This document shows, piece after piece, positions 42,386-58,129 of a stretch of DNA of 64,000 bases (position 1 is the first letter of the stretch; every line of letters begins with the position of its first letter). The notes below the pieces were generated by a model. It made no database searches. It was not told the origin of the DNA and worked only from the letters and a program-made list of their open reading frames with translations. The stretch spans positions 3,810 to 67,809 of the forward strand of contig NZ_JBIIDX010000001.1 in assembly GCF_044238155.1 (NCBI RefSeq), written 5' to 3'. The stretch is from Aestuariivirga sp. Its GTDB lineage: Bacteria > Pseudomonadota > Alphaproteobacteria > Rhizobiales > Aestuariivirgaceae. A program made the translations under genes and the position numbers.

Positions 42386-42452
42386 GTCGTTCTGGGTCTC
42401 GCAACCGCGTTTAAGGTGATGGACTTGAGCAATGGACTGGACAGCAACGGTT

Positions 42453-43094
42453 TCATTTCAATTTCTTGAGGCGGATTTCGTAGACGTGCCCGTGCAAGTG
42501 GAAGAACGCGGGATAGCGCTCTGGGTCGCAAACGCGTAGTATGTCGAACTGTTCGGCAATCGATTTGCCCGGATCGATCTCGCTGTCTGCAGGTATGCGC
42601 CTTCGGTAATAACTTGCTGTGACCTCAGGTTGCGGCACTGGAATTCTTCCCTGCCGAATCATGCCTATCACCTCATCCATCAACTTCAGTTCGTTGGCGA
42701 AGAGAGCGGCGTTGATCTCTTCGTGGAGTGCATGTGGGGCTACCTCGAAAGTTCTCTTTGACCAAACATCACCACTGTCGACTTTCTCTGCCGCGTCGAT
42801 TGCGGAAACGGTCAGGGTGTGAGCGCCTTCGATGATAGCCCAGACGTGTGGGCTCCACCCTCGGCCTCTCGGCAGGTCACTTGCGTGCAGGACGATGACA
42901 TGCCCGTAGAGGGCCCTCCGTTCGGCCGGGATTATCTCGGAGCAGGAAATGAGGAACAGCACATCGCCACCGCCAAGCTTCTCCACCTCATGCAGTAGGG
43001 TTGTTTCATCGCCGGGTGTCTGCTGGTCACGCCAGGTCTCGAGCCAGGGAATGACCGGGTGATGGCGGCTCGAACAGAGAAGGTCGATCTTCAT
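42453..43094 (-). CDS. formyltransferase-domain protein occupying the slot where the acetyltransferase PseH would be expected
   Basis: 213 aa. IVLHASDLPRGRGWSP corresponds to the N-x-H-x-SLLPxxRG formyltransferase motif, but the Asn position is Val. VDSGDVW corresponds to the catalytic Asp region. Confidence 0.65.
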   Translation of the reverse strand: MKIDLLCSSRHHPVIPWLETWRDQQTPGDETTLLHEVEKLGGGDVLFLISCSEIIPAERRALYGHVIVLHASDLPRGRGWSPHVWAIIEGAHTLTVSAIDAAEKVDSGDVWSKRTFEVAPHALHEEINAALFANELKLMDEVIGMIRQGRIPVPQPEVTASYYRRRIPADSEIDPGKSIAEQFDILRVCDPERYPAFFHLHGHVYEIRLKKLK

Positions 43095-44188
43095 GGTGCC
43101 GTTCCAGCGTTCATGACTGCGACAACGCGCTCCGTTCCGCCACCGTCGCAGATCCTAGCCGAGTGCGCAGAAAGCGCGGCAAGGCAGTCGGGTAACATGG
43201 CCTGTTCCAGTACTCGACGTAGGCGGTGGGGAAAATCATCGGCCAGCAAGGAACCAGGGTATAGGGCGGCGCCCGCGGCGATCATGTTGCGGGCAATACC
43301 CGCCTGGTTGGCGGCAGTTTCCGTGATGATGGTGGGCAGTCCAAGGCAACAGCGCTCCCAGGTTGTCGTACCGGCAGCCCCAATCGCTAGGTCCGCCTCA
43401 GCCATGAGGCTAGGCATGTCATTGACATTGACGGCGACCTCGGCCGACCATGGCAGTTCGGCCGCCAGCTTCCTGACGCGGGGGAGGGCAGGTGAATTAT
43501 TTCCCATGATGATGATCAGGCTAGCGTCCGGCGGCAAGTTTGCGGTTTTCATGGCTAGCAGTATGCGCGAGGTGGCATCGGCAACGTCAACCCCCCCCAT
43601 GGAAATGAGCAGGCGCCGGGGTTTCCGCTCCCCACGGCCTGCAAGAGACGCCTCGCGCAGAGCCGCAAAACCCGGCCTCAACAGCGCATAGTGCGGACCG
43701 ACAATCCGCCGGGCCGTGGAGGGAAGCAGAGGGTCGTAATCGGACGCTCTCCGGCCCAGATTTTGGTCCAGCAGCAAGTCAGCAAGATGCGGCCTGTCGG
43801 CAAGATCGTCAATCACCAGCAGTTTCGTACCTCTGGGGCGGGCTACATCTTCCCAGCGCTCATCGAAGGCATAATGGTCCAATACTAGCCAATCTGGTGG
43901 CTCGGCCGAGAGTGCAGCGCGGGTGCTCGCAGAATCCCTCTGCCAGTTCTCTCCTGCCCAGGCGGCATGGGCAGGCGGTGCTTCAGGTGTGGGTCCCTGA
44001 GGTGCCGGCAGGAGGGTTACTGAAAAGCCTTTCGATCTGATGTGCGCTGCCAGGTTGCCAGGAAGTTCGCGCGTGATGAAATGGCAAATTGTACCCGCTT
44101 TGCGCAGTGCGCTTGCAAGCGTCAGGCACCGCATGACGTGCCCTGTGCCCATCTCGATTGAGGCATCCACACGAAAAGCTACTCGCAT
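43091..44188 (-). CDS. pseG: UDP-2,4-diacetamido-2,4,6-trideoxy-beta-L-altropyranose hydrolase
   Basis: ORF 43091..44266 with a preferred ATG at 44188 (MRVAFRVDASIEMGTGHVMRCLTLASALRKAG), the typical PseG N-terminus. ATGA overlap with the downstream gene. Confidence 0.8.
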   Translation of the reverse strand: MRVAFRVDASIEMGTGHVMRCLTLASALRKAGTICHFITRELPGNLAAHIRSKGFSVTLLPAPQGPTPEAPPAHAAWAGENWQRDSASTRAALSAEPPDWLVLDHYAFDERWEDVARPRGTKLLVIDDLADRPHLADLLLDQNLGRRASDYDPLLPSTARRIVGPHYALLRPGFAALREASLAGRGERKPRRLLISMGGVDVADATSRILLAMKTANLPPDASLIIIMGNNSPALPRVRKLAAELPWSAEVAVNVNDMPSLMAEADLAIGAAGTTTWERCCLGLPTIITETAANQAGIARNMIAAGAALYPGSLLADDFPHRLRRVLEQAMLPDCLAALSAHSARICDGGGTERVVAVMNAGTAP

Positions 44189-44190
44189 GG

Positions 44191-46230
44191 CTAGTTGATC
44201 CGCTTGAAACCGGCGTGGCACACTGGCCCTTTGAGAAGCGATGTTACGTCGAGCCCGTCTTCGCACTTGGCAATGAGGGCAAACACCTTGTCAATCGCCT
44301 CCGCATATCGCTCAATCACCTCGGGGGTATGTGCAAGACAGGCATAGGTGCCGGTTGCGGCCAGGAAGCCAAGGGCCAGCATTTCTTGAGTGATAAGAGT
44401 CTTGTACGCCAGCGCATTCGCGCCGGGAAAGCTGAAAGTGGCGAGGGCGGGAAGGCCACTGTGATCAATGGCGAGCTTGTGACGGTCTGCGACCTGCTGC
44501 CAACACCCACGGATGGTTCGGCCAATTTCCGTGATGCGCTCCCACGAACGCTCGCGCGCCATGACGTCAAGCGTCTTGAGAGCTGCGGCGGGCCCGATGC
44601 GTTCAGTCCAGAAGGTCGAGGAGATGAAGGTAGTCTGTGCGGCCTCCATGACTTCGCGGCGACCGACCACGGCATTTATGGCATAGCCATTGCCGAGTGT
44701 CTTGCCAAACACAACTATGTCAGGCTCGATGCCATATTTCAGATACAGTCCACCAAATGTCTCACGAAAACCTGAGGTACATTCATCGAAGATCAGCACG
44801 ACGCCATGGCGCGTTGCCAGTTCGCGTACCTTCTGCAGAAAGTTAGCGTGAGGTTCGGCATTGCGCACGACTTCCATCTTGATCACGCCGATACCACCGC
44901 CGGACAGAAGGCCTTCCAGCGCAGCAATATCGTTGTAGTTGAAGGGGTGTACCACGCCGCGAAGCGCCTTGGGTACGCCTGCTGGGTTCAGTCCGGGCAG
45001 CAGGTGTCCTGCGAGGCTGTCGTCGCTGCCGAGATTGGCCGATAGGTACCAGTCATGCCAACCGTGGTAACCACACACCGCCACGCCATCCCGGCCCGAG
45101 GCAGCACGCGCAATGCGTATCGCAACGGCATTTGCCTCACCGCCAGAACGGGTAAACCTCACCATCCCCGCGAAGGGCGCGATCTCGATCAATCTTTCGG
45201 CAAGCCATACTTCCTCTGGACAATTGAGGGTCGTCATGTTGCCGCTGTCGATCACCGAGTGCACTGCGGCATCAACCTCCGGATGCCCGTAACCCAGTGT
45301 GTTGGTGCCAATCCCCATCAGGCTCATGTCGATGAGAGCATGTCCGTCCATGTCCCAGACGGTACATCCCTTGGCGCGGCTGAAATAGGCAGGCCATTGT
45401 TCTGGCGCGAACATTTCTGCTCTCTTGGACAGCAACATGCTTCCACCAGGAATAATCTGTTTGGCTCGTTTCCATAACTTTTGCCCGCTGCCCATGCTGG
45501 CTCCCTCATTACGGGAAATGCCCCGATTCAACAGAAACTCCTCAGGCTTGGCCTGCCAAGCGAAAAGAGCTTGCTGCCAGGTGAAATCGTCACGTCCGCC
45601 AAGGTTGCAGACAAGAGCGTCCACAGCATTCAGATCGGCTGCCTCATCCACAGTCCAACGAATATAGGATAGATCTTCCAGATTGCTTAGGCAGGCGCGG
45701 CGGAACGATCCCCTGCGGAGATAGGGCGTGACGTGCTCTCGATCAAAAGCGGAAGAGGCCTCGTTTGCTGCGCGCATCAGTGCGGCAGCCGTGAATACCT
45801 CAATATCCAATCCGTCAGGATAGCTCGCGGGATCGATGTTGCTGGCATAATCAACGTCTTCTTGTTGACGCAGCGCGATCACCGCATCGATCAGTGCTGG
45901 ATCAGTCAGTGGGCAATCCGCTGTGATCCGCACTACAAAGTCGGCTGCGTGGGAAGCGGCAGCGCGTGCGAAACGATCCAGTACGTCTCGCTCACTTCCG
46001 CGCACGACAGCAATCTTGCGTGCTGCCAAATGTGCAGCTAGCACGTCGTCCGATGGCTGGTCGGTGGTAGCGACGACCACCTTGTCCAGCATTCGCGCCC
46101 GCAGTGTCCGGTTGATTACCCAGTCGATGACTGGTCTTCCTGCGAGAAGCCGCATTACTTTTCCTGGAAGACGGCTGGATCCCATGCGGGCTTGGATGAT
46201 GGCGATAGTAGTCATGACTTTGGCCAGCAT
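44191..46230 (-). CDS. fusion of an SpsF/COG1861-type cytidylyltransferase with a class III (GSA-aminomutase-like) aminotransferase
   Basis: 679 aa. N-terminus IAIIQARMGSSRLPGKVM. The C-terminal half has GYGHPEV...RFTRSGGEANAVAIRIAR...and the PLP-lysine region VVFGKTLGNG. Confidence 0.75.
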   Translation of the reverse strand: MLAKVMTTIAIIQARMGSSRLPGKVMRLLAGRPVIDWVINRTLRARMLDKVVVATTDQPSDDVLAAHLAARKIAVVRGSERDVLDRFARAAASHAADFVVRITADCPLTDPALIDAVIALRQQEDVDYASNIDPASYPDGLDIEVFTAAALMRAANEASSAFDREHVTPYLRRGSFRRACLSNLEDLSYIRWTVDEAADLNAVDALVCNLGGRDDFTWQQALFAWQAKPEEFLLNRGISRNEGASMGSGQKLWKRAKQIIPGGSMLLSKRAEMFAPEQWPAYFSRAKGCTVWDMDGHALIDMSLMGIGTNTLGYGHPEVDAAVHSVIDSGNMTTLNCPEEVWLAERLIEIAPFAGMVRFTRSGGEANAVAIRIARAASGRDGVAVCGYHGWHDWYLSANLGSDDSLAGHLLPGLNPAGVPKALRGVVHPFNYNDIAALEGLLSGGGIGVIKMEVVRNAEPHANFLQKVRELATRHGVVLIFDECTSGFRETFGGLYLKYGIEPDIVVFGKTLGNGYAINAVVGRREVMEAAQTTFISSTFWTERIGPAAALKTLDVMARERSWERITEIGRTIRGCWQQVADRHKLAIDHSGLPALATFSFPGANALAYKTLITQEMLALGFLAATGTYACLAHTPEVIERYAEAIDKVFALIAKCEDGLDVTSLLKGPVCHAGFKRIN

Positions 46231-47039
46231 CTCGGGTCAAGAAGTCGCGTATCGGTCGTGGTGAGATGATTTGGCAGTGGCGGAAGTTTAGGGACATCTA
46301 GAATTTCGGCAAGCTGCACGGCGTTATCGACACCAATCACAACCCGCTCGACAGGTCGGGCCATCGCGAGCGCGAGTGCGGCTTGCGCGAGTGTTGTCTC
46401 CTGAGCAGCCACCCAAGCACGCCAGTCAGACAGTAGGCCACCCCAGCGGCTGGCCCACCGCGGTGTTTCGTTAAGTGTGAGTAATCCCTGCAGATATACC
46501 GAGCGTGCATGCACCCGCACGCCGTCGGAGGCCAGTTGGAGAAGCATGTCATTCCAGCGGGCGTCGAGCGCGGAGAGTGGTATCTGCACAATGTCTGGCG
46601 TCATGCGCCCCAACAGCGCCCGGAGCTCATCCGGTTCATAAACCGAAAAACCGATAGCCCGCGTGAGACCATTCCCTTTGATGCTGGCCAGCGCTGAGGC
46701 AAGACGAGGTTCTTCATGAATTTGTGCCGGAGCATGGAGGAGGATTGCCTCAAAACATTCGATGCCAAGGCGCGCAGCGCTCGCATTTATGCGACATGAC
46801 AGTTCCTCAATGTGTTCAAGTCTTCCGACTTTGCCCACCACGTTGAAACCTGAAATGCCAACCTGTCCCAACACGGACTCAGCAGAGCCATAGGCCTCCG
46901 CGGTATCAATCGTATTGATACTTGCGGCTCTGGCTAGCGACAATATACGCGCAACTTCCGAACGGGGCACTTGGCCGGAGCCAGCAACTCCATAATCCAT
47001 GCCGAACTGCACCGTGCCTAAGGCCAGTCGCTCAGTCAT
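46212..47039 (-). CDS. aldo/keto reductase
   Basis: ORF 46212..47141 with a preferred ATG at 47039 (MTERLALGTVQFGMDYG...INTIDTAEAYGSAESVLG). It overlaps both neighbouring genes. Confidence 0.75.
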   Translation of the reverse strand: MTERLALGTVQFGMDYGVAGSGQVPRSEVARILSLARAASINTIDTAEAYGSAESVLGQVGISGFNVVGKVGRLEHIEELSCRINASAARLGIECFEAILLHAPAQIHEEPRLASALASIKGNGLTRAIGFSVYEPDELRALLGRMTPDIVQIPLSALDARWNDMLLQLASDGVRVHARSVYLQGLLTLNETPRWASRWGGLLSDWRAWVAAQETTLAQAALALAMARPVERVVIGVDNAVQLAEILDVPKLPPLPNHLTTTDTRLLDPRCWPKS

Positions 47040-47673
47040 GACCCGACAGCTTGCGCAAAAGGGATACAGACACCCACTCGTGGGCGTCATCGGTCGGCTT
47101 GTCCGACAAATGATGATAGACTTCATGCGATAGGCAAACATAGCTGGGATGCCAGTCGAACAGTCGACGATAGTCCATTTTGAACGACCAAAGGCCTTCC
47201 TTGTGGTGGTAGGGCCTGGTCACTGGACTGATTGAGAAAAAATCGTGGATCACCAGCCAGCCCGGAGTAGCTAAGACGCGGTCAGCTTCTGCGGCGATAC
47301 GGAACAGATCGTCTCGGTCGCACAGGTAGAGACAGAAACCAAATATGACCACATCAAATTCACCAGCTGCAAACGGGAGGGCGTCGGCTGTGCCCACTTG
47401 GGCATCGACCCCCAACTTCCGTGCATGTGATACTGCGGCAACAGACGGATCAATGCCGCTCACCTTTGCAGTACTAGCAGCAGCGATTGCAGCGCTGCGT
47501 TGTCCGGCGCCGCACCCAACCTCCAGGACTCGCCTAATCTCCGAGATGGTTGAAATATGGCGCAGAGTGGCCACGATGCGATCGTCATCTGAAACACCTC
47601 GCGAAACAGCTGCGCTGTTTCGAAGAAACCACGCATCGCCTTCGCCACGAAGAAAAGCGTCTCGCTGGCGCAT
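47032..47673 (-). CDS. class I SAM-dependent methyltransferase, resembling pseudaminic-acid-biosynthesis-associated methylases
   Basis: 213 aa. SAM motif VLEVGCGAGQRS. The N-terminus FLRGEGDAWFLRN is typical of the Pse-associated methylase family as I recall it. Confidence 0.7.
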   Translation of the reverse strand: MRQRDAFLRGEGDAWFLRNSAAVSRGVSDDDRIVATLRHISTISEIRRVLEVGCGAGQRSAAIAAASTAKVSGIDPSVAAVSHARKLGVDAQVGTADALPFAAGEFDVVIFGFCLYLCDRDDLFRIAAEADRVLATPGWLVIHDFFSISPVTRPYHHKEGLWSFKMDYRRLFDWHPSYVCLSHEVYHHLSDKPTDDAHEWVSVSLLRKLSGHD

Positions 47674-47676
47674 GTG

Positions 47677-48819
47677 TCAGCCTGTCTCGCGGGCCAGAAC
47701 GGCAAGCACTCGTTCCCGCTGGTTTTCGGTGAGTGTAGCAAATATCGGAAGGCTTATAGCGCGACCATAGTAGCTCTCAGCAGATTGGAAGTTATCCGAA
47801 TTAAATCCCATGCGCTGATACCATGGGTGCCGATAGACGGGTATGTAGTGGAGATTGACCCCAATACCATGTTTGCGCAGTCCCTGAAAAATCGTGCGGT
47901 GTTGATCAGGATCAACCTGGATCACATAAAGATGCCAACTTGACAGAGTGTCTGGATGCTGATGCGGTCGTATAACATTCAGATCGACCAGCGCTGCATC
48001 ATAGGCTGCCGCATGGGCGCGGCGCGCTGATAGATAATGATCGAGCTGCATCATCTGGCTGGTGCCTAATGCAGCAGCAATGTCGGTAAGCCTATAATTC
48101 CATCCCAATTCAATTTGTTCATAATACCAAGAGCCATCATAGCGTGACATTTTATCGCGATCGCGGGTAATGCCATGACTCCTCAACATGCGCATGCGCT
48201 CGGCGAGAGCAGCATCTTGGGTGGTCGCAATTCCTCCTTCGCCTGTGGTTACGATCTTTACAGGATGAAAGCTGAATATGCAGATATCTGACCATCTGCA
48301 GTCGCCAACCGGTTTGCCGTGATAGCTGGCGCCAATCGCATGACTGGCATCCTCTATCACGCAAATTCCATATTTCTTCGCCAAGACACCGATGCGACTC
48401 ATTTCACAAGATTGGCCGGCGAAATGAACTGGAACGATGATTTTTGGCAGCCGGCCTTCACGTGCAGCCACCAAAAGTTTTTCCTCTAGGGCATCAGGAC
48501 TCATGCAGTAGGTTAATGGGTCAATGTCGACGAAATCGACTGATGCGCCACAATAAACCGCACAATTGGCAGAGGCAACAAAAGTGATAGGCGAAGTCCA
48601 TAGCTGATCGCCCGGGCCAAGCCCCAGTGCAAGGCACGCGATGTGCAGTGCCGAAGTTGCCGAATTCACAGCGATGGCATGGGCAGCCCCAACCCGGTCC
48701 GCAACAGCCTGCTCGAATGCTGGCACCGCAGGTCCCTGGGTGAGGAAGTCCGAACGCAAGACCTTGACCACCGCATCGATGTCCGCTTCTGTGATAGTTT
48801 GGCGTCCATAGGGAATCAT
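47677..48819 (-). CDS. pseC: UDP-4-amino-4,6-dideoxy-N-acetyl-beta-L-altrosamine transaminase
   Basis: 380 aa. MIPYGRQTITEADIDAVVKVLRSDFLTQGP, a DegT/DnrJ/EryC1 family member. Confidence 0.85.
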   Translation of the reverse strand: MIPYGRQTITEADIDAVVKVLRSDFLTQGPAVPAFEQAVADRVGAAHAIAVNSATSALHIACLALGLGPGDQLWTSPITFVASANCAVYCGASVDFVDIDPLTYCMSPDALEEKLLVAAREGRLPKIIVPVHFAGQSCEMSRIGVLAKKYGICVIEDASHAIGASYHGKPVGDCRWSDICIFSFHPVKIVTTGEGGIATTQDAALAERMRMLRSHGITRDRDKMSRYDGSWYYEQIELGWNYRLTDIAAALGTSQMMQLDHYLSARRAHAAAYDAALVDLNVIRPHQHPDTLSSWHLYVIQVDPDQHRTIFQGLRKHGIGVNLHYIPVYRHPWYQRMGFNSDNFQSAESYYGRAISLPIFATLTENQRERVLAVLARETG

Positions 48820-49817
48820 TATATGGCCCCGATTTTGGACCGGTTCTGATCAATCCACCTCGCAAGAGAGTCCGGGGTCATCCAGTCCGGGTTGCCATCA
48901 CTCGTGTAGCTGAAAGCCTCAGCAACTGCCTTTCCATTCTTGATCCGCTTGCTGTCTGCAGACCAATTATTGATTGCTGGCAATACTTTATAATAGGAAT
49001 CATATTCATATGTATGTGACGCGTCTTCGGCTCCGATCATCTGCTCGTGAAGCTTCTCTCCTGGGCGAATTCCCACGATCTCGTGCTTGGCATCGGGTGC
49101 TATGACCCGCGCGATGTCTGTTACTTTCATTGATGGTATCTTCTTCACATAGACTTCGCCGCCAACCATGTCTTCGAAAGCGTGCCAGACAAGCTCAACG
49201 CCTTGTTCGAGGCTGATCATGAAACGGGTCATGCGTGGGTCTGTAATGGGAAGTATACCCTTGTCTCTGACTGACATAAAGAAAGGAATGACCGAGCCGC
49301 GCGAGCCCATCACATTACCGTATCGGACGACGCTGAACCGGGTCTTGTGCTCGCCAGAATAGGAGTTACCAGCTACAAACAGCTTGTCGGAAGCCAGCTT
49401 GGATGCGCCGTAAAGATTGATCGGTGCAGAAGCCTTGTCGGTTGACAAGGCTACCACCGCCCTCACTCCTTTGTCGATTGCAGCGTCAATCACATTCATG
49501 GCGCCAGTTACATTGGTCTTGATGCACTCAAACGGATTATACTCAGCTGTTGGCACGATCTTGGTAGCGGCAGCATGAACCACATAGTCCACTCCATCGA
49601 AGGCGCGATAAAGCCGTTCACGATCCCGAACATCACCAATGAAGAAGCGCACTCTTGGATCCGAGCCATATGTTTTGGCCATTTCCCACTGCTTCATTTC
49701 ATCTCTCGAAAAGACAATGATCTTTTTGGGATTGAAACGCATCAGGGTCATCGGCAAGAAAGCATTGCCGAAAGAGCCTGTACCGCCGGTTATCAATATG
49801 ATGGAGTTGGATAGCAT
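48819..49817 (-). CDS. pseB: UDP-N-acetylglucosamine 4,6-dehydratase (inverting)
   Basis: 332 aa. ILITGGTGSFGNAF...FSRDEMKQ...GDVRD. Its size and motifs match PseB/FlaA1. Confidence 0.9.
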   Translation of the reverse strand: MLSNSIILITGGTGSFGNAFLPMTLMRFNPKKIIVFSRDEMKQWEMAKTYGSDPRVRFFIGDVRDRERLYRAFDGVDYVVHAAATKIVPTAEYNPFECIKTNVTGAMNVIDAAIDKGVRAVVALSTDKASAPINLYGASKLASDKLFVAGNSYSGEHKTRFSVVRYGNVMGSRGSVIPFFMSVRDKGILPITDPRMTRFMISLEQGVELVWHAFEDMVGGEVYVKKIPSMKVTDIARVIAPDAKHEIVGIRPGEKLHEQMIGAEDASHTYEYDSYYKVLPAINNWSADSKRIKNGKAVAEAFSYTSDGNPDWMTPDSLARWIDQNRSKIGAI

Positions 49818-50083
49818 AGGTCCACTCTTGTATGTTTTCCAGTTGCTCCGGCAATCCGAAGCACGTGCCAGTACCAGCGGTAGCGGCAGAAGACCAAAAC
49901 GCGATACCCCTATAGTTCCTTACCGCTGGAGGCAAGCCATAGAACCAGCCTAGTCCTCAGCCTGGTTGATACGAAGAGTGTAAAAATATGAATAATCTCA
50001 CATTATCAACATCTTAAGAGCACTTCACCACCAAAGTCCAAAGTGGGGCTCGTGCAAATGGCACCAGACGCACCATTTCTCGG

Positions 50084-50818
50084 TCAATTCCCATCTCGTC
50101 GGTTTTTGCAATAAATCAGCAGGTGAGGCGTAGTCTTGCTCTTGGCAAGAAAAGGAAAGAGCAAATATAATTTGGACAGTAGATTTGCGATGGTTCTGTG
50201 CCGTTTTTCCGACGCCCTGCCGTATTCCCGTATTTCAACTTCCACAAAACTGTCTGAAGCGATCTTCTCTATAGCGCCAAAATAATCCCTTGCTCTTGGC
50301 CCCACATTTACAAGAAGAGATCCTCCGCGGTTTGTAGCATGAACGCACTTTTCATAGGCAATCACCGCATTTCCTTCATCAAATCGAGTGTTTATCCCGA
50401 TTGTCTCAAGACAGACCACAAAGTCGCCTTTTATGTCTGGTGGAATGTCTTCGATCTTGCAGACGATGCCTCTTCCCCCAGTCGTGGCTTGGCCCGTCTC
50501 AATCCGTTCTTCATCAGCATCAAGGCCAAAATAGTTCTCTGTCTTGAACATCGGCTTGTTTTTCATGTAACCACAAGCAATATCCAGCCCAGATTTGAAT
50601 CCCTGTGATTCCCTCATCAATTCTTCGACCCACATCCAAAGAAGCTGTTTGCTTGCTCGCCTGCTTTGTCTCATCATGATGCTATCAAAGGCAAAAGCCC
50701 GCCCTCTATTGGAATCAAAAAATTCATGGTTACGAATAGGATGATTACCGGGCTCATAATCTGTGGTCAACAGCAGCACGAAGGTATAGCGATGCGGAAC
50801 AGCATAAAGGTCTTGCAA
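50084..50818 (-). CDS. probable class I SAM methyltransferase-like protein
   Basis: 244 aa from TTG at 50818 (an internal ATG at MMRQSRR is possible). LDIACGY and GLDADEE resemble motifs I and post-I. It is the lowest-GC gene in the window. Confidence 0.45.
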   Translation of the reverse strand: MQDLYAVPHRYTFVLLLTTDYEPGNHPIRNHEFFDSNRGRAFAFDSIMMRQSRRASKQLLWMWVEELMRESQGFKSGLDIACGYMKNKPMFKTENYFGLDADEERIETGQATTGGRGIVCKIEDIPPDIKGDFVVCLETIGINTRFDEGNAVIAYEKCVHATNRGGSLLVNVGPRARDYFGAIEKIASDSFVEVEIREYGRASEKRHRTIANLLSKLYLLFPFLAKSKTTPHLLIYCKNRRDGN

Positions 50819-50972
50819 ATGTTGAATTGAGGCAGATCAAGGGTTGCTAGAAAAATGTTGAACCGCCCTCATGCGTAAGATACAGAGCGACTCGAGGTTG
50901 CGCGGTAGCTCTCGTCAGTTTGTCCAATCGTAGTCAAGGCTGAGCAAGCCCGACAGCTCATGAGGTGCTGAA

Positions 50973-52328
50973 TTGGCGCGCATTTACATCAACATAGAAA
51001 TACAGAAGCGTGAGTTCGACGGAAGATTTTTGCTGGCCCTGATAGCAGCAGAACGTGGACATACCGTGCTGTTGGGTAACTTGAAGCCATTACTCCGCAA
51101 AGGTCTTCTGGCTCCCGGCATAATACTTGATAAGAGCCTGACCCCGCGGCCGGAAAAGCTTCTCATGATGAAGAATTCAAAAGAGCGCGGTTTTCTCGTA
51201 ACGAGTATTGACGAGGAAAGCGGTATTCTGCAGGGCGATTATTCGGCTTTTGCCAAAAAGCGCTACTCGGAGGAGTCCTTGCGGCTTGCGGATGCCGTAT
51301 TCTTCTGGGGACCCCATGACTTCGGTCACATGAACGAAGCCTTTCCAGCATTCCGTGACCGCTTTCATGTCACTGGCAATCCAAGAGTTGACATTTGGCG
51401 CTCTGAACTCACCCAATATTTTAGCAAGGCGAATCCCAATCCCCGGCCCTATGTGTTGCTGCCGTCTAACTTCAGCAGCATTTTCAGCCGCGATGATCTT
51501 GCAGTATCAATCAAGCGGCTCTGCCGAATGGGTTACATTGAGGAAAATGCGGTAGGGGATGCTTGGGAGGCGCGCACCTACCGCTACTGGCAGGAGGGCG
51601 TTGAGCTTGGTTGGGAGTTCATAACCGCGTTCAGACGTCTGGCTCGTCAATTTCCTGCGCTGGACTTCATCGTACGTCCTCATCCGACGGAATCTCCCGA
51701 TCTATGGAGGCAGCTTCTGCGCCCGCGGGAAAATCTCTCTATAAAGTCGGAGGGAAGCATTTCGCCGTGGATCCGACATGCGCGCGTTGTTGTAAATCAC
51801 GGATGTACAAGTGCTCTGGAAACCGCTCTTTCCGGTGTACCTCTGGTCAGTTACGAGCCTGCTATCAACCATAATTCTGATCTAGTTTTCCCGAAGAGAC
51901 TGGGGCTTTGTGCGCGCACCTACGATGAGCTTGAAACAGCCGTCAGTGAAGTCGTTTGTTCGAAACACAGGAATACAACGTCGTCTGACCTGGCTGTATT
52001 GAGTACAAGGCTGGCTGCGATCACGGGAAGGTTTGCGGCTGAGAGAATTGTAGATATCTGGGATGCGCTCGACAATCCGTTGCTCCGGAAAGGCGATCTT
52101 TGGTCTGATGAGCCAGGGTCGCGTCTTAGGGTAATGCCCTACCGTGTCGATGCTTACAAACTCTTGTCGATGGCTGGCTTCGGTCCCCAGAACTGGACTT
52201 CCTGGAAGTTCCCGCCATTTGATCAACGTGAAGTGCTTGAAGCAAAGTCCCTATTTGTCCAGACGCTTCGGCGTTTCGAAAAAGTGCCTGTCAGCCTGCT
52301 TGGGCCGCGTATAATCAGGGTCGGATGA
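50973..52328 (+). CDS. 'surface carbohydrate biosynthesis protein'-type protein (uncharacterised; possible GT-B-like transferase)
   Basis: 451 aa. The N-terminus IYINIEIQKREFDGRFLLALIAAERGHTVLLG matches my recollection of that family. The function is not established. Confidence 0.5.
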   Translation: MARIYINIEIQKREFDGRFLLALIAAERGHTVLLGNLKPLLRKGLLAPGIILDKSLTPRPEKLLMMKNSKERGFLVTSIDEESGILQGDYSAFAKKRYSEESLRLADAVFFWGPHDFGHMNEAFPAFRDRFHVTGNPRVDIWRSELTQYFSKANPNPRPYVLLPSNFSSIFSRDDLAVSIKRLCRMGYIEENAVGDAWEARTYRYWQEGVELGWEFITAFRRLARQFPALDFIVRPHPTESPDLWRQLLRPRENLSIKSEGSISPWIRHARVVVNHGCTSALETALSGVPLVSYEPAINHNSDLVFPKRLGLCARTYDELETAVSEVVCSKHRNTTSSDLAVLSTRLAAITGRFAAERIVDIWDALDNPLLRKGDLWSDEPGSRLRVMPYRVDAYKLLSMAGFGPQNWTSWKFPPFDQREVLEAKSLFVQTLRRFEKVPVSLLGPRIIRVG

Positions 52329-52363
52329 CGTCTTGTGTCTTGAGTTGGTTAAGTGAATTGCTG

Positions 52364-53278
52364 TTACACTGCAAAAAGTGGCTGTTCGTCCAGGGTTGGT
52401 GTCCGAAGCATCAAATCCAATGCATCGTGTCGAACATGGTTGAGTTTCATTTCGTGCCGGATCAAGCCATCGGTTACGATGCCCTTATCGTAACACTCTC
52501 GCAGCAATCCGAAGAATAGTCGCTCTTGTTTAGGGTCAGGATGCGGTTTGTAGCTTCCCATCAAACCGTATTCGCCGAAAAATTTACGACGCAGGCGATG
52601 ATAAACATTCTTGGGTGTAAATGCGCCCTTGGTTTCGGGTGGTCGGAAGTCTACCGGCAGTCCTGACTTCCACGGCTGGGTCAGGCGCTTGGTGTTGTGA
52701 AGCATTCGTGTTTGCTGGGAAAGCTGATCAAAGTCGTTCCAGACCGTTTCGAGCAGCCCAATCGTCTCTTGTGGCTCGAGTTGCAGCGTGATCCACTTCA
52801 TATAGTCGCGTCGAAATTCAAACATTTCCTCGAAATTTGTACGCACATTCCAGTGTGCAAGCTTGGTGTTATCGAGCAGCATAACGCTTGATGCCCAGAC
52901 ATCCTGTTTGCTGCCGGCACGGTGGCGTGCCATGATTGCAACTCCCCTCATGTCACGCGCTATGAGTTCGTTGACGTCGGAAATACAGAAGACATCTGGG
53001 TCAACGACAAGTGAGCGTCCCTGATAATTCATGAGCTCAGGTGGCGCGAAGCGCAGCACAGTAAAGGACTGAAGGTCTTCATTCAGCCACTCTCGCTTTA
53101 GCCCGTCGCGCAGATAAGCTTGGCCTTCGCGGTTCTTCATCCAGGCATAGTTGGTGGTCTCGATCAGGCGTACGTCAAAAGCAGACGGATCAGCAGAAAA
53201 TCTTTCAAATGAGTATTTTGAGACGAGCGCGCCGATGCTTTGCTTCTCATTGGTGTGAATGAAGATGGTGGGCTTCAT
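52364..53278 (-). CDS. GT8-like GT-A nucleotide-sugar transferase, copy 2
   Basis: 304 aa. It aligns along its full length with 36776..37702 (for example KQSIGALVS, REGQAYLR, DLQSFT, YQGRSLVVDPDVF, SSVMLLD). Confidence 0.5.
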   Translation of the reverse strand: MKPTIFIHTNEKQSIGALVSKYSFERFSADPSAFDVRLIETTNYAWMKNREGQAYLRDGLKREWLNEDLQSFTVLRFAPPELMNYQGRSLVVDPDVFCISDVNELIARDMRGVAIMARHRAGSKQDVWASSVMLLDNTKLAHWNVRTNFEEMFEFRRDYMKWITLQLEPQETIGLLETVWNDFDQLSQQTRMLHNTKRLTQPWKSGLPVDFRPPETKGAFTPKNVYHRLRRKFFGEYGLMGSYKPHPDPKQERLFFGLLRECYDKGIVTDGLIRHEMKLNHVRHDALDLMLRTPTLDEQPLFAV

Positions 53279-53352
53279 GGCGTTAATCCTTCCAAATGTC
53301 TTGCGGATGACGTCCAGAGGTCATACACTTCGCGATAGCAAAACTTATCCAG

Positions 53353-54360
53353 TTACTCAACCTTTCCCAGAACAAGCTGACGGAGTCGTTCTGCAACGCG
53401 AGCGGTATCGTCCGGCAACGGTTCTGCTGGACGGGAGAACACCTTCCCGAGAACTGCTGCGTGCCCGCTTTCGTAAAGCGGCACGATTGCCCTTCTGAGG
53501 TCACGTGCGCGGAACGCCACAGCCAGCCTGTCCCACCAGCCGGTCAAACCAGTGCGAATGGATGGTTCCGCTATCATCATTGGTTTTCCGAGTCTTGCCA
53601 CCTCAATGATCATTGAGAGGCTGTCTGCCGTCACAACGAAGTTGTCTCCATGGGCGAGAAGGCCGAGATAGGGGTTTTCGATGTCAGGTGTTCCCCAGCG
53701 GAAGAGCCGATCTTGTGGTCGGAGATGGGCTTCAAGTGCAACTGCCACCTTGTTTGGCGTACGGCGCGAAGCCGACACGTAAATGCTGCCGCTAGACGCA
53801 AAGCTTTGCTGCATGGTGCCCAGCACGGAAATGGCAAAGTTCGGATCAAGTTTCCGTAACCCCATGTCGCCTCCCAGGAGAAGAACGCTGAGTGGCCGCT
53901 GAAGCACATCGAACTGTGCCGCAAAGGCTGCATGCGCCGCTTCGACCTGACTTGGGTCAATACCGATCAGAGGCATGCGAATTTGCAGTTCGTTGGAATG
54001 CCCCGATGCCCGATAATAGGGCGGCAGAACAATCAGGTCGAAGGCAGATGCCCTTCCCTTGGCTGCATTGAAAAGTGCTACACGTGTGCGACCTCCGGAT
54101 TGCTGTTTGATCCAGAGCGCTACGAGCGAGAGATCACGGCCGATGGTCAGGACCGCGTCTGGCCAAGGCGGACCCAGTGGATCCGAAGCGACGACGTCAA
54201 GGTGACGGATCGTCGGGCGGACACGGGGTTTCAACCCCTGCTGTCCCTTCCGTATGACAATTGTCTTGATCTCATAAGGCAGGCGGGAAGCCTCGGCTGC
54301 GCGCAGGATCTGCGAATTGTCACCGGCCTTTGGCCCGGTCAGAACCCATAGGCTTGGCAG
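53353..54360 (-). CDS. ELM1 / DUF1022 family protein, copy 3 (apparent CTG start)
   Basis: The track gives 53353..54234 (TTG). The in-frame upstream 42 codons encode (L)PSLWVLTGPKAGDNSQILRAAEASRLPYEIKTIVI, homologous to the N-termini of copies 1 and 2. The only in-frame start candidate after the TAA is CTG at 54360, 6 nt after AAGAGGAGG. Confidence 0.55.
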   Translation of the reverse strand: MPSLWVLTGPKAGDNSQILRAAEASRLPYEIKTIVIRKGQQGLKPRVRPTIRHLDVVASDPLGPPWPDAVLTIGRDLSLVALWIKQQSGGRTRVALFNAAKGRASAFDLIVLPPYYRASGHSNELQIRMPLIGIDPSQVEAAHAAFAAQFDVLQRPLSVLLLGGDMGLRKLDPNFAISVLGTMQQSFASSGSIYVSASRRTPNKVAVALEAHLRPQDRLFRWGTPDIENPYLGLLAHGDNFVVTADSLSMIIEVARLGKPMMIAEPSIRTGLTGWWDRLAVAFRARDLRRAIVPLYESGHAAVLGKVFSRPAEPLPDDTARVAERLRQLVLGKVE

Positions 54361-54466
54361 TGTTTACCTCCTCTTGATCCGCTAACTCATTAGAACGGTT
54401 TGAAGTGATTTTCGACAGGAAATCAGAGAATGACGCATCTTGCGGAAGGATCGCTGGAAGCTCGTC

Positions 54467-55138
54467 CTAGAAGTCGTAACCTAGCAGCTGGATTGTCCGG
54501 TCCCAGCGAGCCGCCACCAAGTCTCTGCTTGAGGCCGTATAGTAGCTACGATAGTCTCGTGCTTCGCGATAGTTCCGCTTATCTTCAGGCAAGATGCCAA
54601 GGGCAAGGCCTGTTTGCGCTGCGATTTCGTTGACCGCGCTACTCAGCTCCTCGAAGCGGTATACCTTGTCTACTGCCACCAGCCCGTTCTCGGTGTACAG
54701 GTCCCAATTACTGATGATAGGGTATTCGTGGAGGAAACGGTCAAAATCCCAGTGAGAGGCTCTCTCCTTGCGCCGATAGAAAAACCAGTAACTTACAATG
54801 AAGTCCCAGGGGTTTCGATCGAAAGCATATTTTCGGTATTGCCCGAATGCGTCGGCTGACAGCCAGCGCCTAATCTGGCTGATCGGCATGTGGTCGTAGG
54901 CGAAGCGATGATGAAGCCAATGGTCGCGACCGATCCACTCGCGTGCACGAAACCATTTTGCCGACAATATGTCTGCAGGCCAAAGGCTGTAATAGTTCCT
55001 GCCGGCGACGGCTGGCAAAGAAATCGGCGTCCACGTATCACGAGGGTCCAGGTGTGGAATAATGGCGCGCTCAAGACTGGTAGAAGCAGTCTTTCGCGTC
55101 TTTACCAGGATGAAGCGGCGTGAGTGCGACAGGATCAT
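54467..55138 (-). CDS. sulfotransferase family protein (Sulfotransfer_2-like)
   Basis: 223 aa. N-terminal FILVKTRKTASTSL (5'-PSB-like) and DRNPWDFIVSYW (3'-PB-like). 4-nt overlap with the ABC exporter gene. Confidence 0.6.
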   Translation of the reverse strand: MILSHSRRFILVKTRKTASTSLERAIIPHLDPRDTWTPISLPAVAGRNYYSLWPADILSAKWFRAREWIGRDHWLHHRFAYDHMPISQIRRWLSADAFGQYRKYAFDRNPWDFIVSYWFFYRRKERASHWDFDRFLHEYPIISNWDLYTENGLVAVDKVYRFEELSSAVNEIAAQTGLALGILPEDKRNYREARDYRSYYTASSRDLVAARWDRTIQLLGYDF

Positions 55139-56862
55139 CTGCTGACCTGAAGATGGCTTTCCACACTCAGAACTCTCCCATCGTCGATCTCGTAAAGGCG
55201 ATCAGCGATTGTTGTCCATGCTGGTCGGTGAGTGATCGCCACTATCGTGTATTTTCCACGAAGCAATGCTATGTTATTGACGATTTCTTGTTCTGTGGCT
55301 GGGTCAAGCGCACTGGTCACCTCATCAAGGATCAGGAGTTCAGGTGATCCTACCAGTGCCCGGGCGAGAGATATACGCTGCCGCTGACCACCAGACATCT
55401 TGCCCCCCATCTCACCCACGTCGGTATCCAGCCCCTGCGGAAAATTTCTCACAAAGTCCTCTGCCTTTGCCTGCCGAAGTGCCGACCATACCATGTCATC
55501 GGTGAAGTGTGGATCATCGAACGTGATGTTCTCCCGTACTTTGGCGTGGAGCAAGCTTAGCTCCTGCGGAACATAACCAATTTTTCTGCGCCACTTGTAA
55601 AGATCAATGTCATTGAGCGAGACGCCATCAACAGTGATGCTGCCACGATCAGGTTCGTAGAGGCCGATGAGCAAGTCGATGATGGTTGTTTTTCCCGCAC
55701 CAGATGGCCCTCTCAAAACAGTGATTTGACCCGCGGGGATTTCAAGGTCGATACCACGAATGATCTCGGCCTCAGCATGAGAGAACGACACATTTTCAAA
55801 ACGGCACAGCTTGGTGATGGCTGCATCGAGCCTGCCCGGATTCCTCTCCTGATGTGACAGAGCCAAGGTGGTCAGTTCAGAAATGCGGGTGTAGAAGCGC
55901 TCAAACTTCACGGCTTGCTGTACAGCCTTCTGAACCTTAGAGAACATACTGTTGATCTTGAAGAAGATCACGGTGAAGACCAGTAATTCAGGAAGAGAAA
56001 CCTTCCATGACGTATAAGCAAAGTAAGCCGTGATTGTGATAAGCAACGTCACAACGACGTCATTACCAAGGTTCAAAGCCTGTTTTGACATCTCGACAGT
56101 GATCAGCGCCCGCCGCAGCTTAATGAGCTTCTGGCTAATCGGCCTGAGCATCGGTTCGAAGCGGTGCATTGCCTTCAGAGGTTTCATGTTGGCTATGAGG
56201 TCCACGACGCGGACAGTGAGTGCTCCTGTCATGTTTGCTTCACGGCTACCTGCCGCGCGGCTCAGTTTGACCAACCGGTTCATGGCTGTGGTAATGGCAA
56301 GACCTATCACGATACTGACGAGTGCTAGCTTCCAGCTATACACGAGCGCCACGGCTGCGAGCAGCACCGACTGCAGTCCCGCCGCAATCGCTTGAGCACC
56401 GAACAGATAGGCTTGACTGGCACGTGAGGCGTCATTGGCCACTGCAGCGGCGAAGTTGCCAGCATGCTGGTCAGCATAGAAGCGCCAGCTTGCGCCTATC
56501 GCCGCATTGATTAGTCGGTCCTGGAAGTCCACTGCAAGTTCTGCTGCGACTACAGCTGCATAGGATAGCGCAAGAAACGAGATCAGGGCCTTGAGTATGG
56601 CGGCCGCTGCAATTAGCAAGACGAGAGTCTCGAAACTCGGCGTCATTCCAGACCAAGCGATGATCTCTTGGACAAAGGCGCTCCCCTGAGATGCCTTGCC
56701 GTCCTGGGCATAAAGTGCCGCAGCGGCCGGTAGCAGGGCACCCACCCCGATGGCTTCAACCGCAGCAGCAACGACGAGGCTCAGCAGAACCAGAACGGAA
56801 CGTAGGCGATCACCTTGCAAGAATATCTTAAGGATCATATTCATTTGGAAACTTGCCAGCAA
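55135..56862 (-). CDS. fused ABC exporter (N-terminal transmembrane domain plus C-terminal ATPase, MsbA-like half transporter)
   Basis: 575 aa. Six-helix-like N-terminal half. Walker A GPSGAGKTT, signature MSGGQRQRISLAR, Walker [13 protein letters not shown]. Confidence 0.85.
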   Translation of the reverse strand: MLASFQMNMILKIFLQGDRLRSVLVLLSLVVAAAVEAIGVGALLPAAAALYAQDGKASQGSAFVQEIIAWSGMTPSFETLVLLIAAAAILKALISFLALSYAAVVAAELAVDFQDRLINAAIGASWRFYADQHAGNFAAAVANDASRASQAYLFGAQAIAAGLQSVLLAAVALVYSWKLALVSIVIGLAITTAMNRLVKLSRAAGSREANMTGALTVRVVDLIANMKPLKAMHRFEPMLRPISQKLIKLRRALITVEMSKQALNLGNDVVVTLLITITAYFAYTSWKVSLPELLVFTVIFFKINSMFSKVQKAVQQAVKFERFYTRISELTTLALSHQERNPGRLDAAITKLCRFENVSFSHAEAEIIRGIDLEIPAGQITVLRGPSGAGKTTIIDLLIGLYEPDRGSITVDGVSLNDIDLYKWRRKIGYVPQELSLLHAKVRENITFDDPHFTDDMVWSALRQAKAEDFVRNFPQGLDTDVGEMGGKMSGGQRQRISLARALVGSPELLILDEVTSALDPATEQEIVNNIALLRGKYTIVAITHRPAWTTIADRLYEIDDGRVLSVESHLQVSR

Positions 56863-57040
56863 CTCACTTGGTGCTTTGAAAGATTAAAGGTTCTGCCCTG
56901 TCTCTACAATAACCATGGCCGCGTAATCGCTAGTGTCATGCGGTAGCGGTTATTTGGCGCAAGTGTCAAGAAATCAAGTATCTCGTTGGGTGAGCCCCTC
57001 TCGAAGCCTGAATGTCGGGAACTGCGCCTTGCGTAATGTG

Positions 57041-58129
57041 TCAGCGCCTCCTGAACCGCCATCCCGGCCGCACGCTGTTCACCAGCATCATCTCGGCGAT
57101 GTTGCCGCTGCTCAGCACGCCCACGACCTGGCCATTGCCGTCCACCACCACCTCGGCGTTGGCTCCGCGGCTTCGCATGCTGTTGAAGGCTTCGGCGAGC
57201 GGCTGGGCGAGGAGGAGGGGCTGGGCTGGCCGCATGGCGCTGCTGATTGGCGTGGCCTCACCGTGCTCGCGCAGGGCAAGGATCATCGCATCCCGGTCGA
57301 GCAGTCCCCTGGCGCGGCCATTGGTTCCCAGCACGGGAAACTCCGTCTGCGGCGAAGCCAGAAGGGCGTCAATCGCTGCTGAGAGCGGCTGACTCTCATC
57401 GAGAATGATGGCCGCCGGCTCCATCGCATCGCGCACCGTCAGCTTGGCTGCAAAGCCCGTGAAGGCCGCCGACTGCGCCTCGGCCGCGGCCGCGAAATAG
57501 ATGAACACGCCAATCAGCACCAGGATGGGACTGAAGAACAGCCCCAGCAGCACAAACAGCGCTGCAAAGCCCTGGCCGATTTTTGCGGCGAGAGACGTTG
57601 CCCTCTGTGCCCCGAGCTTCATCGCCAGCAGTGCCCGCAGCACGCGCCCGCCATCCATTGGAAAGGCCGGAATCAGGTTGAATGCCACCAGCGTGACGTT
57701 CACCAGCAGCAACCGCTCGGCAAGGCTCGCCTGCTCCAGGTCAACCGTCAGGACGCCGGACAATGATAGTCCGAAGCCTGCCATCAGCAGCAGCGCGATC
57801 ACCACATTCACCAGCGGGCCGGCAATGGCCACCAGCAGTTCTTGCCCGGGCCTGTCCGGCATGCGCTCCAGGCTTGCAATGCCGCCGATCGGCGTCAGCA
57901 CCACAGTGGGCGTCTTGATGCCGAAGCGCCGCGCCATGGCGATGTGGCCGAACTCATGCAGCGTCACGCACAGGAACACCAGCATGATGAACACCACCGC
58001 GTCGACCGCCGCCGCGGTCCCACCCACCAGGTAGTCCGCAAGGCCAATCCAGGCCAGAAACAGCAGAAAGGTGATGTGCAGGCCGATATCGGTTCCGGCG
58101 ATGCGTCCAATGCGGAGAGACCAACCCAT
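57041..58129 (-). CDS. site-2 (M50) metalloprotease with C-terminal CBS pair
   Basis: 362 aa. HEFGHIAMARRFG (HExxH) and NLIPAFPMDGGRVL. Host-like high GC resumes at this gene. Confidence 0.85.
   Translation of the reverse strand: MGWSLRIGRIAGTDIGLHITFLLFLAWIGLADYLVGGTAAAVDAVVFIMLVFLCVTLHEFGHIAMARRFGIKTPTVVLTPIGGIASLERMPDRPGQELLVAIAGPLVNVVIALLLMAGFGLSLSGVLTVDLEQASLAERLLLVNVTLVAFNLIPAFPMDGGRVLRALLAMKLGAQRATSLAAKIGQGFAALFVLLGLFFSPILVLIGVFIYFAAAAEAQSAAFTGFAAKLTVRDAMEPAAIILDESQPLSAAIDALLASPQTEFPVLGTNGRARGLLDRDAMILALREHGEATPISSAMRPAQPLLLAQPLAEAFNSMRSRGANAEVVVDGNGQVVGVLSSGNIAEMMLVNSVRPGWRFRRR

Follow-up and report, generated by a model that had tools for sequence, protein, structure and literature searches.

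Two non-equivalent GT8-like/ELM1 gene pairs in one conserved locus of an Aestuariivirga genome

Why would a bacterial genome hold two copies of what looks like the same pair of glycosyltransferase genes, one in DNA of host-like GC content and the other in visibly AT-richer DNA? The question is raised by a 64,000-nucleotide stretch of an Aestuariivirga sp. genome (RefSeq assembly GCF_044238155.1, contig NZ_JBIIDX010000001.1, positions 3,810 to 67,809 of the forward strand), which we refer to as the window; all positions below are those of the window. The AT-richer pair, at 52364–54360, consists of GT8L_2, a member of a family that we call GT8-like (after glycosyltransferase family 8, GT8), and ELM1_c, a member of the ELM1 family (Pfam PF06258). 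A first-pass annotation suggested that an incoming island had brought its own version of a module which the host already possessed. Our analysis points to a different answer: ELM1_c–GT8L_2 is likely the type-B pair of a conserved two-tier locus, in which the GT8-like genes are ancient paralogs and the low-GC second tier has most likely been swapped by homologous recombination.

Two GT8-like paralogs and their ELM1 neighbors

GT8L_2 had been described as a full-length paralog of the gene at 36776..37702, here GT8L_1, and a BLASTP alignment running the whole length of the proteins bears this out (159/298 identities, 53%; 69% positives; E 9e-115). Even the hand count that accompanied the description, about 68 identities in 115 residues, is matched by the codon alignment, which gives exactly 68 in the first 115 aligned residues, and the five motifs cited with it are all found in both genes. 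The global codon alignment gives 54% amino acid and 59.5% nucleotide identity. By codon position, the identity is 65% for the first, 73% for the second, and 40% for the third, which is saturated. GT8L_1 and GT8L_2 are the only GT8-like copies in the genome, a 3.3-Mb metagenome-assembled genome (MAG) of 246 contigs, and the nearest GT8L_1 ortholog is 93–94% identical.

The partner family, PF06258 (Mito_fiss_Elm1), has exactly three genes in the genome, ELM1_a, ELM1_b, and ELM1_c, all within this locus. As annotated, an ELM1 gene does stand beside the second GT8-like copy: ELM1_c is a PF06258 gene located 74 nt upstream of GT8L_2. The suggestion that the same two-gene module occurs twice, however, does not hold. 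The first pair is arranged head-to-head (GT8L_1/ELM1_b), with GT8L_1 heading the operon GT8L_1-GT4-ELM1_a that diverges from ELM1_b, whereas the second pair is co-directional (ELM1_c, then GT8L_2). Moreover, ELM1_c is just 29–31% identical to ELM1_a and ELM1_b, and the three genes form separate orthogroups in the ELM1 tree.

The occurrence of both families together twice in 17 kb might call to mind a recent in-genome duplication of the two-gene module. This explanation was rejected, because of the 40% third-position identity and the separate, old clades to which the copies belong (see below); the overall amino acid and nucleotide identities and the distance of ELM1_c from its two paralogs speak against it as well. 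The case of a recent duplication with no compositional difference, which the first-pass annotation had named as a refuting outcome, is likewise excluded by the third-position identity together with the GC content at third codon positions (GC3; 0.57 vs 0.87). We give duplication virtually no credence.

Both pairs in the relatives

Among 201 genomes of the taxonomic family that were searched, 46 same-genus genomes hold the GT8-like family. Type B, 67–81% identical to GT8L_2, is present in 14 of these 46. Thirteen of the 14 also have type A, and in nine the copies lie 4.4–8 kb apart on one contig, while 32 of the 46 locus-bearing congeners have type A alone. One of the latter, the complete genome G108, keeps the sulfotransferase gene Sulfo1 after the ATP-grasp gene and has a different ABC (ATP-binding cassette) exporter. 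Both tiers are present in G002, G003, G009, L019 (the same as G125), L042, and L043, and in same-genus genomes the two types stand at a spacing of ~4.5 kb in DNA of host GC. The gene order in G002 is ELM1_a, GT4, GT8L_1 / ELM1_b, ATP-grasp, Sulfo1 / GT8L_2, ELM1_c / TIGR04396-like ... Sulfo2, ABC, and the whole is at host GC (GC3 0.81–0.94 overall, with type A at 0.938 and type B at 0.911). In L019, where the GT8L_1 ortholog is 93% identical, the same framework is enclosed by the same flanking genes, DMGDH and peptidase M50. In G002, L019, and G108 alike, Sulfo1 follows the ATP-grasp gene in synteny.

In the trees, type A and type B form two clades, each with a support of 100, and the same genus members occur in both. 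Since the two clades share genus members and the ELM1 genes fall into three orthogroups, the duplication of the GT8-like gene predates the genus, and the second pair is an ancestral but accessory tier. It is not a redundant import, since both types stand side by side in congeners, in DNA of host GC. When relatives are compared for the presence of the second module, as the first-pass annotation had proposed for strains, this tier proves to be accessory (14/46); an empty site was not seen, and homologous genes occupy the same position. As for different donor lineages, both copies fall inside one genus-level clade; the donor of the right half would at most be a different member of it, of lower GC and as yet unsampled.

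The linkage extends beyond the genus. Of 66 species loci of at least 9 kb, 70% have an ELM1 gene no more than 5 kb from a GT8-like gene, 33% have one directly beside it, 56% have a PF00685 sulfotransferase gene beside it, and 27% have at least two GT8-like genes. In the complete genome of the cultured Algihabitans albus ac2, a single locus (chromosome positions 1717742–1734626; L092) combines two GT8-like genes with a pair of ELM1 genes and a Sulfo1-type gene. Three GT8-like genes are found within ~3 kb in several Gammaproteobacteria MAGs (e.g., L081, L094, and L096).

The low-GC second tier and its origin

The second pair was described as lying in AT-richer DNA and the first in DNA of host-like GC, and GC3 values of 0.574 for GT8L_2 and 0.867 for GT8L_1 agree with this description. 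The ELM1 genes follow the same pattern (ELM1_a 0.76, ELM1_b 0.79, and ELM1_c 0.578). GC3 is 0.46–0.65 in every gene between 40373 and 56862, and 0.75–0.87 in the genes to the left. The 5-kb windows of this block have a GC content of 0.507–0.529, which places them at about the 2nd to 5th percentile genome-wide (mean 0.601, sd 0.039), and the range within the block, 0.47–0.58 vs the genome mean of 0.60, is the kind of compositional deviation that is used to recognize a mobile island. In the genus as sampled, the total GC of type-B genes is 0.585–0.624, compared with 0.506 for GT8L_2 in the window.

At least two arrangements of the right half can be distinguished. Class I (L019/G125 and G002) reads Sulfo1 / GT8L_2<-ELM1_c / TIGR04396-like -> cassette / Sulfo2<-ABC, and its sugar cassette encodes GFO/IDH, NeuB-cupin, HAD, and CTP-transferase (CTP_transf_3) proteins. 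Class II (the window and L022) reads ABC->Sulfo2->ELM1_c->GT8L_2->TIGR04396->PseB->PseC..., where L022, a 7.5-kb contig, spans the ELM1_c-to-cassette part only. With at least two arrangements that carry different sugar cassettes, the earlier suggestion of modular diversification of a surface glycan fits. The identity of the TIGR04396 protein tracks the cassette (61% to L022, 26–27% to L019 and G002, and 77% between L019 and G002), while the identities of GT8L_2 (78–83%) and ELM1_c (58–67%) do not co-vary with cassette type. Since the pair is conserved and TIGR04396 co-varies, ELM1_c and GT8L_2 probably make a portion of the glycan which all cassette types share. The TIGR04396 gene (50973–52328, + strand) is inverted relative to its neighbors in the window and co-directional with them in L022 (L022:1426-2775).

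The two halves of the locus also differ in their phylogeny. The left-half concatenate (1,789 columns) groups the window with L019 (100/100) and rejects the grouping of L019 with G002 (approximately unbiased test, p-AU 2e-5). The right-half concatenate (1,376 columns), in contrast, groups L019 with G002 (95/97), leaves the window outside, and rejects window plus L019 (p-AU 0.007). From the window to L019, the path through the type-B clade is ~4x that through the type-A clade, whereas the path between L019 and G002 is equal in both.

Evidence that the right half varies among strains comes from lake metagenomes. In run X1, the single unitigs 39793–50169 (depth 12.5) and 50157–57946 (depth 12.1) cross both GC breaks and extend ~520 nt and ~1000 nt into the high-GC flanks; the joins are therefore physical. 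The unitig depth in X1 is 12.1–12.5 in the block, 18.2–19.3 in the left module, 18.9 in the left flank, and 21 in the right flank, i.e., the block is at ~65% of the flank depth. The dominant strain in X3 shares the left module (7 single-nucleotide polymorphisms over 3 kb, depth 12.4) and departs from the window sequence at 40268, and the block is at depth 0–6 in X3. The graph branches inside the ATP-grasp gene (~39.8 kb; unitigs break at 39793–39822) and inside the peptidase-M50 gene (~57.93 kb). Together, the unitig patterns of X1 and X3 show that near-identical left modules carry alternative right halves in nature.

We propose that the locus comprises a framework, i.e., the type-A set (GT8L_1, GT4, and ELM1_a, with ELM1_b divergent) plus the ATP-grasp gene and Sulfo1, and a second tier, found in ~30% of the locus-bearing congeners, with ELM1_c–GT8L_2, a variable CMP-nonulosonate cassette plus TIGR04396, a second gene of sulfotransferase-like type, and an ABC exporter. 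In the window, the whole second tier from Sulfo1 to the ABC gene (~18 kb) is a low-GC allele, most likely acquired by homologous recombination from an unsampled lower-GC donor of the same genus-level clade, with crossovers in the flanking ATP-grasp and peptidase-M50 genes. The low-GC allele segregates with other alleles among co-occurring lake strains, much like O-antigen or capsule cassettes. We infer a homologous replacement and not an addition, because the borders lie in or next to conserved genes, the relatives have homologous genes at the same positions, and neither mobility genes nor tRNA genes were seen there. The search for mobility genes covered the Pfam annotation of all open reading frames (ORFs) of at least 150 aa at 40–58 kb, border repeats not being searched, and no tRNA lies at the block borders, the sole tRNA of the window being at 24141–24217.

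The alternative put forward in the first-pass annotation, that a foreign island inserted a second, redundant GT8-like/ELM1 module onto a resident one, would account for the low GC and GC3 of the block, for two copies that are diverged paralogs, and for an accessory second tier that is lacking in the 32 type-A-only congeners. We consider it unlikely, as the type-B pair, Sulfo1, Sulfo2, and the ABC gene occupy the same position at host GC in relatives, integrase, transposase, and tRNA genes are absent from the borders, the type-B gene of the window nests in the genus clade, and the two pairs differ in arrangement and draw their ELM1 partners from different orthogroups. Types A and B, like ELM1_a, ELM1_b, and ELM1_c, are old orthogroups that stand side by side in relatives, which is at odds with an island bringing its own version of a resident module. 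The foreign character of the block is retained, given its deviant composition, conflicting right-half tree, and strain variation; the redundant insertion is not. Vertical descent, with GC lost in place as a hypervariable region came under relaxed selection or AT-biased mutation, would instead explain why a low-GC donor was not found and why the type-B gene sits in the expected genus clade, and the tree conflict could then be an artefact of composition. This explanation is rather improbable in our judgment: the drop in GC3 of ~0.3 spans no more than 18 kb and begins and ends abruptly at gene boundaries, the left module 60 nt away keeps a GC3 of 0.76–0.87, co-occurring strains with near-identical left modules have other right halves, and the path lengths given above differ between types A and B for the window and L019 but not for L019 and G002.

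The 246-contig MAG, the unitig branches at ~39.8 and 57.93 kb, and the change of depth across them could also point to an artefact of assembly or binning, in which the left module was joined to the right block of a lower-GC organism via a shared conserved stretch. This outcome is very unlikely in view of the single X1 unitigs over both GC breaks, the intact ATP-grasp and peptidase-M50 ORFs over the branch points, a gene order over the left break as in relatives, and the block being the majority path (12.5 of ~19). Furthermore, the junction stretch is present in 20 lake or freshwater metagenome runs (29–100% of the sampled words). A random chimera was largely rejected on the spanning X1 unitigs and the junction in the 20 runs.

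The homologous replacement that we favor has points against it. No low-GC donor was found in L022, L019, L023–L025, 80 species genomes, or 18 further family genomes; all type-B genes in the donor search have a GC content of at least 0.54 (at least 0.585 within the genus). The closest relatives of the type-B and pseudaminic acid (Pse) genes, on L022 (83–89% identical), are high-GC, and this closest Pse-type allele has a GC3 of 0.80–0.90. The right-half proteins of the window are enriched in the amino acids FYMINK (0.226 vs 0.173 in L019), and amino acids with AT-rich codons could, under LG+G4, pull the window to a basal position and inflate the right-half conflict. The depths are assembler k-mer depths of Logan unitigs and not of mapped reads, and, the window being part of a MAG contig, the long-range joining of the two halves within a single cell is deduced from unitig overlaps. 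Finally, KdoT, the sole characterized bacterial PF06258 member (see below), is distant. As to the donor, G015, a member of the same GTDB genus, has ~0.51 GC over 20 kb (L123, G015:C16:40001-60000), and its type-A locus genes have a GC3 of 0.46–0.55. The genus thus spans at least 0.51–0.66 GC, and because of this congener a lower-GC donor inside the genus is plausible.

Gene products, proposed function, and known systems

Neither GT8L_1 nor GT8L_2 has a Pfam or NCBIfam match above cut-off. The PF01501 match of GT8L_2 (14.2 bits, E 0.033) is below the gathering score of 24.3, and 17 of 25 family members match PF01501 below threshold, over the DxD region (14–17 bits, best E 7e-4). Searching PDB sequences with GT8L_2 and with its profile gave nothing except a spurious amine-oxidase match. 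When the AlphaFold2 (AF2) model of GT8L_2 (pLDDT 84.6, pTM 0.84) was compared with the PDB by Foldseek, the top 28 matches were GT8 structures (E 6e-9 to 2e-6, probability 1.0), including GlyE, 3tzt, XXYLT1, LgtC, LARGE1, WbbM, and glycogenin, followed by GT6 and GT24 chains; the TM-scores to the GT8 structures are just 0.43–0.48. The DxD motif D93-P-D95 (in VVDPDVF) is invariant in 25/25 sequences and present in both window copies, and H194 and T200-Q-P-W-K204 are invariant in the family alignment, H194 being the candidate for the C-terminal His that acts as third metal ligand in GT8. Given the Foldseek matches, the sub-threshold PF01501 hits, and the invariant DxD and His, "GT8-like" is a fair label for the predicted fold and the motifs, short of formal PF01501 membership.

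Compared with CAZy GT8/PF01501 (LgtC, GlyE, XXYLT1, glycogenin, and the xylosyltransferase domain of LARGE1), the predicted fold and the DxD motif of GT8L_2 are alike, and its C-terminal H...QPWK resembles the H-x-x-G-x-x-K-P-W segment. The differences are ~90 C-terminal residues (helices 222–292) that are family-specific, the low family scores and TM-scores, and the lack of a PDB sequence match. A profile search of 1.84 billion representatives gave 1,214 clusters (50% identity) at E <=1e-3 and 216 at <=1e-30, and in species-representative genomes, chiefly of Alpha- and Gammaproteobacteria, no fewer than 590 matches to the family were obtained. Longer members carry no informative domain fusions, the matches being weak GT8 ones only, and thousands of relatives are named "hypothetical protein" in all sources. 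Hence, a sizeable glycosyltransferase family of ~1,200 clusters in hundreds of proteobacterial species lacks a name and a Pfam or NCBIfam model.

ELM1_c matches PF06258 with E 1.6e-41 (142.8 bits) when translated from TTG 54234, and with E 1.1e-44 (153.3 bits; positions 1–302) when translated from CTG 54360, the cut-off being 27 bits; none of the ELM1 genes of the locus matched an NCBIfam model. TTG 54234 is situated downstream of the conserved N-terminus (LWVLTGPKAGDNSQ...), which no ATG, GTG, or TTG precedes. Reading along the minus strand, an in-frame TAA (54366–54364) is followed by ACA and then by CTG 54360, which is preceded by AGGAGG at a distance of 6 nt and coincides with the end coordinate in the first-pass annotation. 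The sequence CTG-CCN-NNN-CTR-TGG at this start is kept in L019, G002, and L040. ELM1_c thus probably starts at CTG 54360. The L019 ortholog is called by the gene caller as starting after the conserved GDNAQ motif, probably a mis-call. The AF2 model of ELM1_c (pLDDT 88.4) is a complete GT-B fold with two Rossmann domains, in which residues 1–42 form beta1-alpha1-beta2, and Foldseek matches it with MGD1, MurG, WecB-type epimerases, WaaG, and MshA (E 1e-7 to 1e-5). The motif S-x-R-T is invariant in 96/96 ELM1 sequences (SRRT in ELM1_c, SART in ELM1_b, and SPRT in ELM1_a). Taken as its longest ORF, ELM1_a shares 140 nt with the GT4 gene; given this overlap and a 337-aa call with an 11-nt overlap for the L019 ortholog, the true start is probably later, near 35.6 kb.

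Table 1. Coordinates of the genes and segments of the locus (window positions).
Feature	Position	Strand	Remarks
ELM1_a	34583..35725	-	PF06258, E 8.4e-35; downstream of GT4; own orthogroup, support 100
GT4 glycosyltransferase	35586..36767	-	left (type-A) operon; PF00534 + PF13439
GT8L_1	36776..37702	-	308 aa; type-A paralog, host-like GC; type-A clade, support 100
ELM1_b	37808..38914	+	PF06258, E 1.6e-56; divergent from GT8L_1; own orthogroup, support 100
Sugar-transfer-associated ATP-grasp	38930..40312	+	PF14397; left branch point (~39.8 kb) inside gene
Strain-variable segment with low-GC block	39793..57946		unitig branch points, GC, right-half tree conflict
Sulfo1	40373..41284	+	PF00685 sulfotransferase; first low-GC gene; framework gene in relatives
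Pseudaminic-acid-type nonulosonate cassette	41330..49817	-	Pfam matches; between Sulfo1 and GT8L_2
TIGR04396 "surface carbohydrate biosynthesis protein"	50973..52328	+	246.7 bits; candidate cassette-specific transferase
GT8L_2	52364..53278	-	304 aa; type-B, GT8-like GT-A glycosyltransferase without class; type-B clade, support 100
ELM1_c	53353..54360	-	PF06258 GT-B; 335 aa from CTG 54360, 293 aa from TTG 54234
Sulfo2	54467..55138	-	223 aa, no Pfam match; overlaps ABC gene by 4 nt
Fused TMD-NBD (transmembrane and nucleotide-binding domain) ABC exporter, HepA/MsbA/PglK-like	55135..56862	-	PF00664 + PF00005; last low-GC gene

The cassette genes encode NeuB, an Fmt-like protein, a PseG-like protein, a CTP-transferase/aminotransferase fusion, AKR, a methyltransferase, PseC, and PseB (Table 1). 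The best NCBIfam matches of GT4 are membrane-glycolipid synthases and those of the ABC exporter are HepA and MsbA, all under cut-off. Orthologs of Sulfo2 in L019 and G002 are 65–66% identical, and it has a weak match to a PF03567 gene of L019. A scan of 52.0–57.2 kb for promoters and terminators gave sites no more numerous than in shuffled sequence.

Three further observations concern the surroundings of these genes. At 45043–45075, where the fusion gene encodes its class-III aminotransferase part, very short unitigs reach a depth of ~65 in all four runs, and this pile-up is probably a k-mer stretch common to other organisms. The GC minimum of the block (0.456; GC3 0.457) is found in a 244-aa ORF at 50084–50818 (minus strand) that matches neither Pfam nor NCBIfam models; its LDIACG...DADEERI resembles motif I of S-adenosylmethionine-dependent methyltransferases, and the gene is absent from the Pse-type contig L022. 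The tRNA-Met gene (24141–24217) directly precedes a second lower-GC stretch that reaches to 29300 (GC 0.56–0.58) and lies on an X1 unitig of its own (24177–30071; depth 15.6 vs 18–19 beside it), and 24141–29300 may be another strain-variable island.

GT8L_2 and ELM1_c are probably both glycosyltransferases, judging from their modeled folds and motifs. GT8L_2 would be a retaining, metal-dependent GT-A enzyme of the DxD type, with a UDP-hexose as the probable donor. ELM1_c would be an inverting GT-B enzyme of the KdoT family, using a CMP-ulosonic acid or another nucleotide sugar; the neighboring CMP-nonulosonate cassette makes a CMP-sugar donor plausible, if unproven. Most likely the two enzymes would act in sequence at the cytoplasmic face and extend a lipid-linked glycan there by two consecutive sugars. 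The first tier would be built by the type-A enzymes together with GT4 and the ATP-grasp protein. Once extended, the glycan would be sulfated by the two sulfotransferase-type proteins, capped with the CMP-nonulosonate by TIGR04396, and flipped for export by the HepA/MsbA/PglK-like ABC protein. More speculatively, the combination that recurs around GT8-like genes in species-representative genomes, with a GT8-like protein, PF00685, one or more ELM1/KdoT GT-B enzymes, and an MsbA/HepA-like ABC protein, might encode a class of glycolipid or short glycan, sulfated and bearing ulosonic acid, that has so far gone undescribed, in which each pair would stand for one disaccharide tier, a possibility that we regard as doubtful for now. 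If each pair did correspond to one such tier, the length of the glycan would be set by the number of GT8-like/ELM1 pairs, be it one, two, or three. Literature searches on DUF1022 and on loci with sulfotransferase, GT8, and ABC genes returned nothing relevant.

KdoT (A1S_2903) of Acinetobacter baumannii, an ELM1-like PF06258 CMP-Kdo:Kdo2-lipid A KdoIII transferase, is the sole biochemically characterized bacterial member of PF06258 (PMC12856342, PMC10936431), and its SRRT motif, R180 especially, is needed for activity (PMC12856342). GtrOC1/14/19/22, encoded in the lipooligosaccharide outer-core loci of A. baumannii, are also PF06258 members (PMC10327509). KdoT and ELM1_c share the Pfam family, the GT-B fold, SRRT (equated by the pattern and not by an alignment with KdoT), and a setting in a glycan locus beside other glycosyltransferases. 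They differ in that the partner of ELM1_c is GT8-like, while pairing with a GT4 GnaT-like protein fits ELM1_a instead; in addition, the locus described here has three ELM1 paralogs, sulfotransferases, ATP-grasp, and a dedicated ABC exporter.

These findings carry a lesson for interpretation. Similar pairs at different GC suggest an island with a spare copy, but the relatives show two fixed, non-equivalent tiers, one of which was swapped whole. Under the more speculative reading of a glycan built in tiers by GT8-like/ELM1 pairs, exchange of the second tier with its nonulosonate cassette would change the type of the cell surface in freshwater populations, e.g., under pressure from phages or grazers. 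The lake metagenomes provide a natural case of cassette variation at such a locus. A tight linkage joins the GT8-like family to sulfotransferases as well as to enzymes of the ELM1/KdoT type, for which a first function in bacteria was not established until 2025. The chemistry can be tested in cultured carriers, among them Algihabitans albus, which also lends itself to genetics.

How does this locus compare with the O-antigen and capsule loci, and with the outer-core (OCL) and capsule (KL) loci of A. baumannii (PMC10327509)? Two differences can be discerned: Wzx/Wzy/Wzz, Wzm/Wzt, and a recognizable initiating phosphoglycosyltransferase are absent here, and the swapped segment includes framework genes besides the cassette, i.e., Sulfo1, GT8L_2, ELM1_c, Sulfo2, and ABC. 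The less ordinary features are the GT8-like family without a Pfam model, the strong linkage of this family with ELM1/KdoT-type and sulfotransferase genes across Proteobacteria, and the conserved CTG start. In other respects the loci are alike: a conserved framework with swapped cassettes and a co-varying transferase, low GC, breakpoints in conserved flanking genes, and several alleles per population. The evolutionary pattern is the familiar behavior of O-antigen, capsule, and OCL loci, and the enzymes belong to known fold classes.

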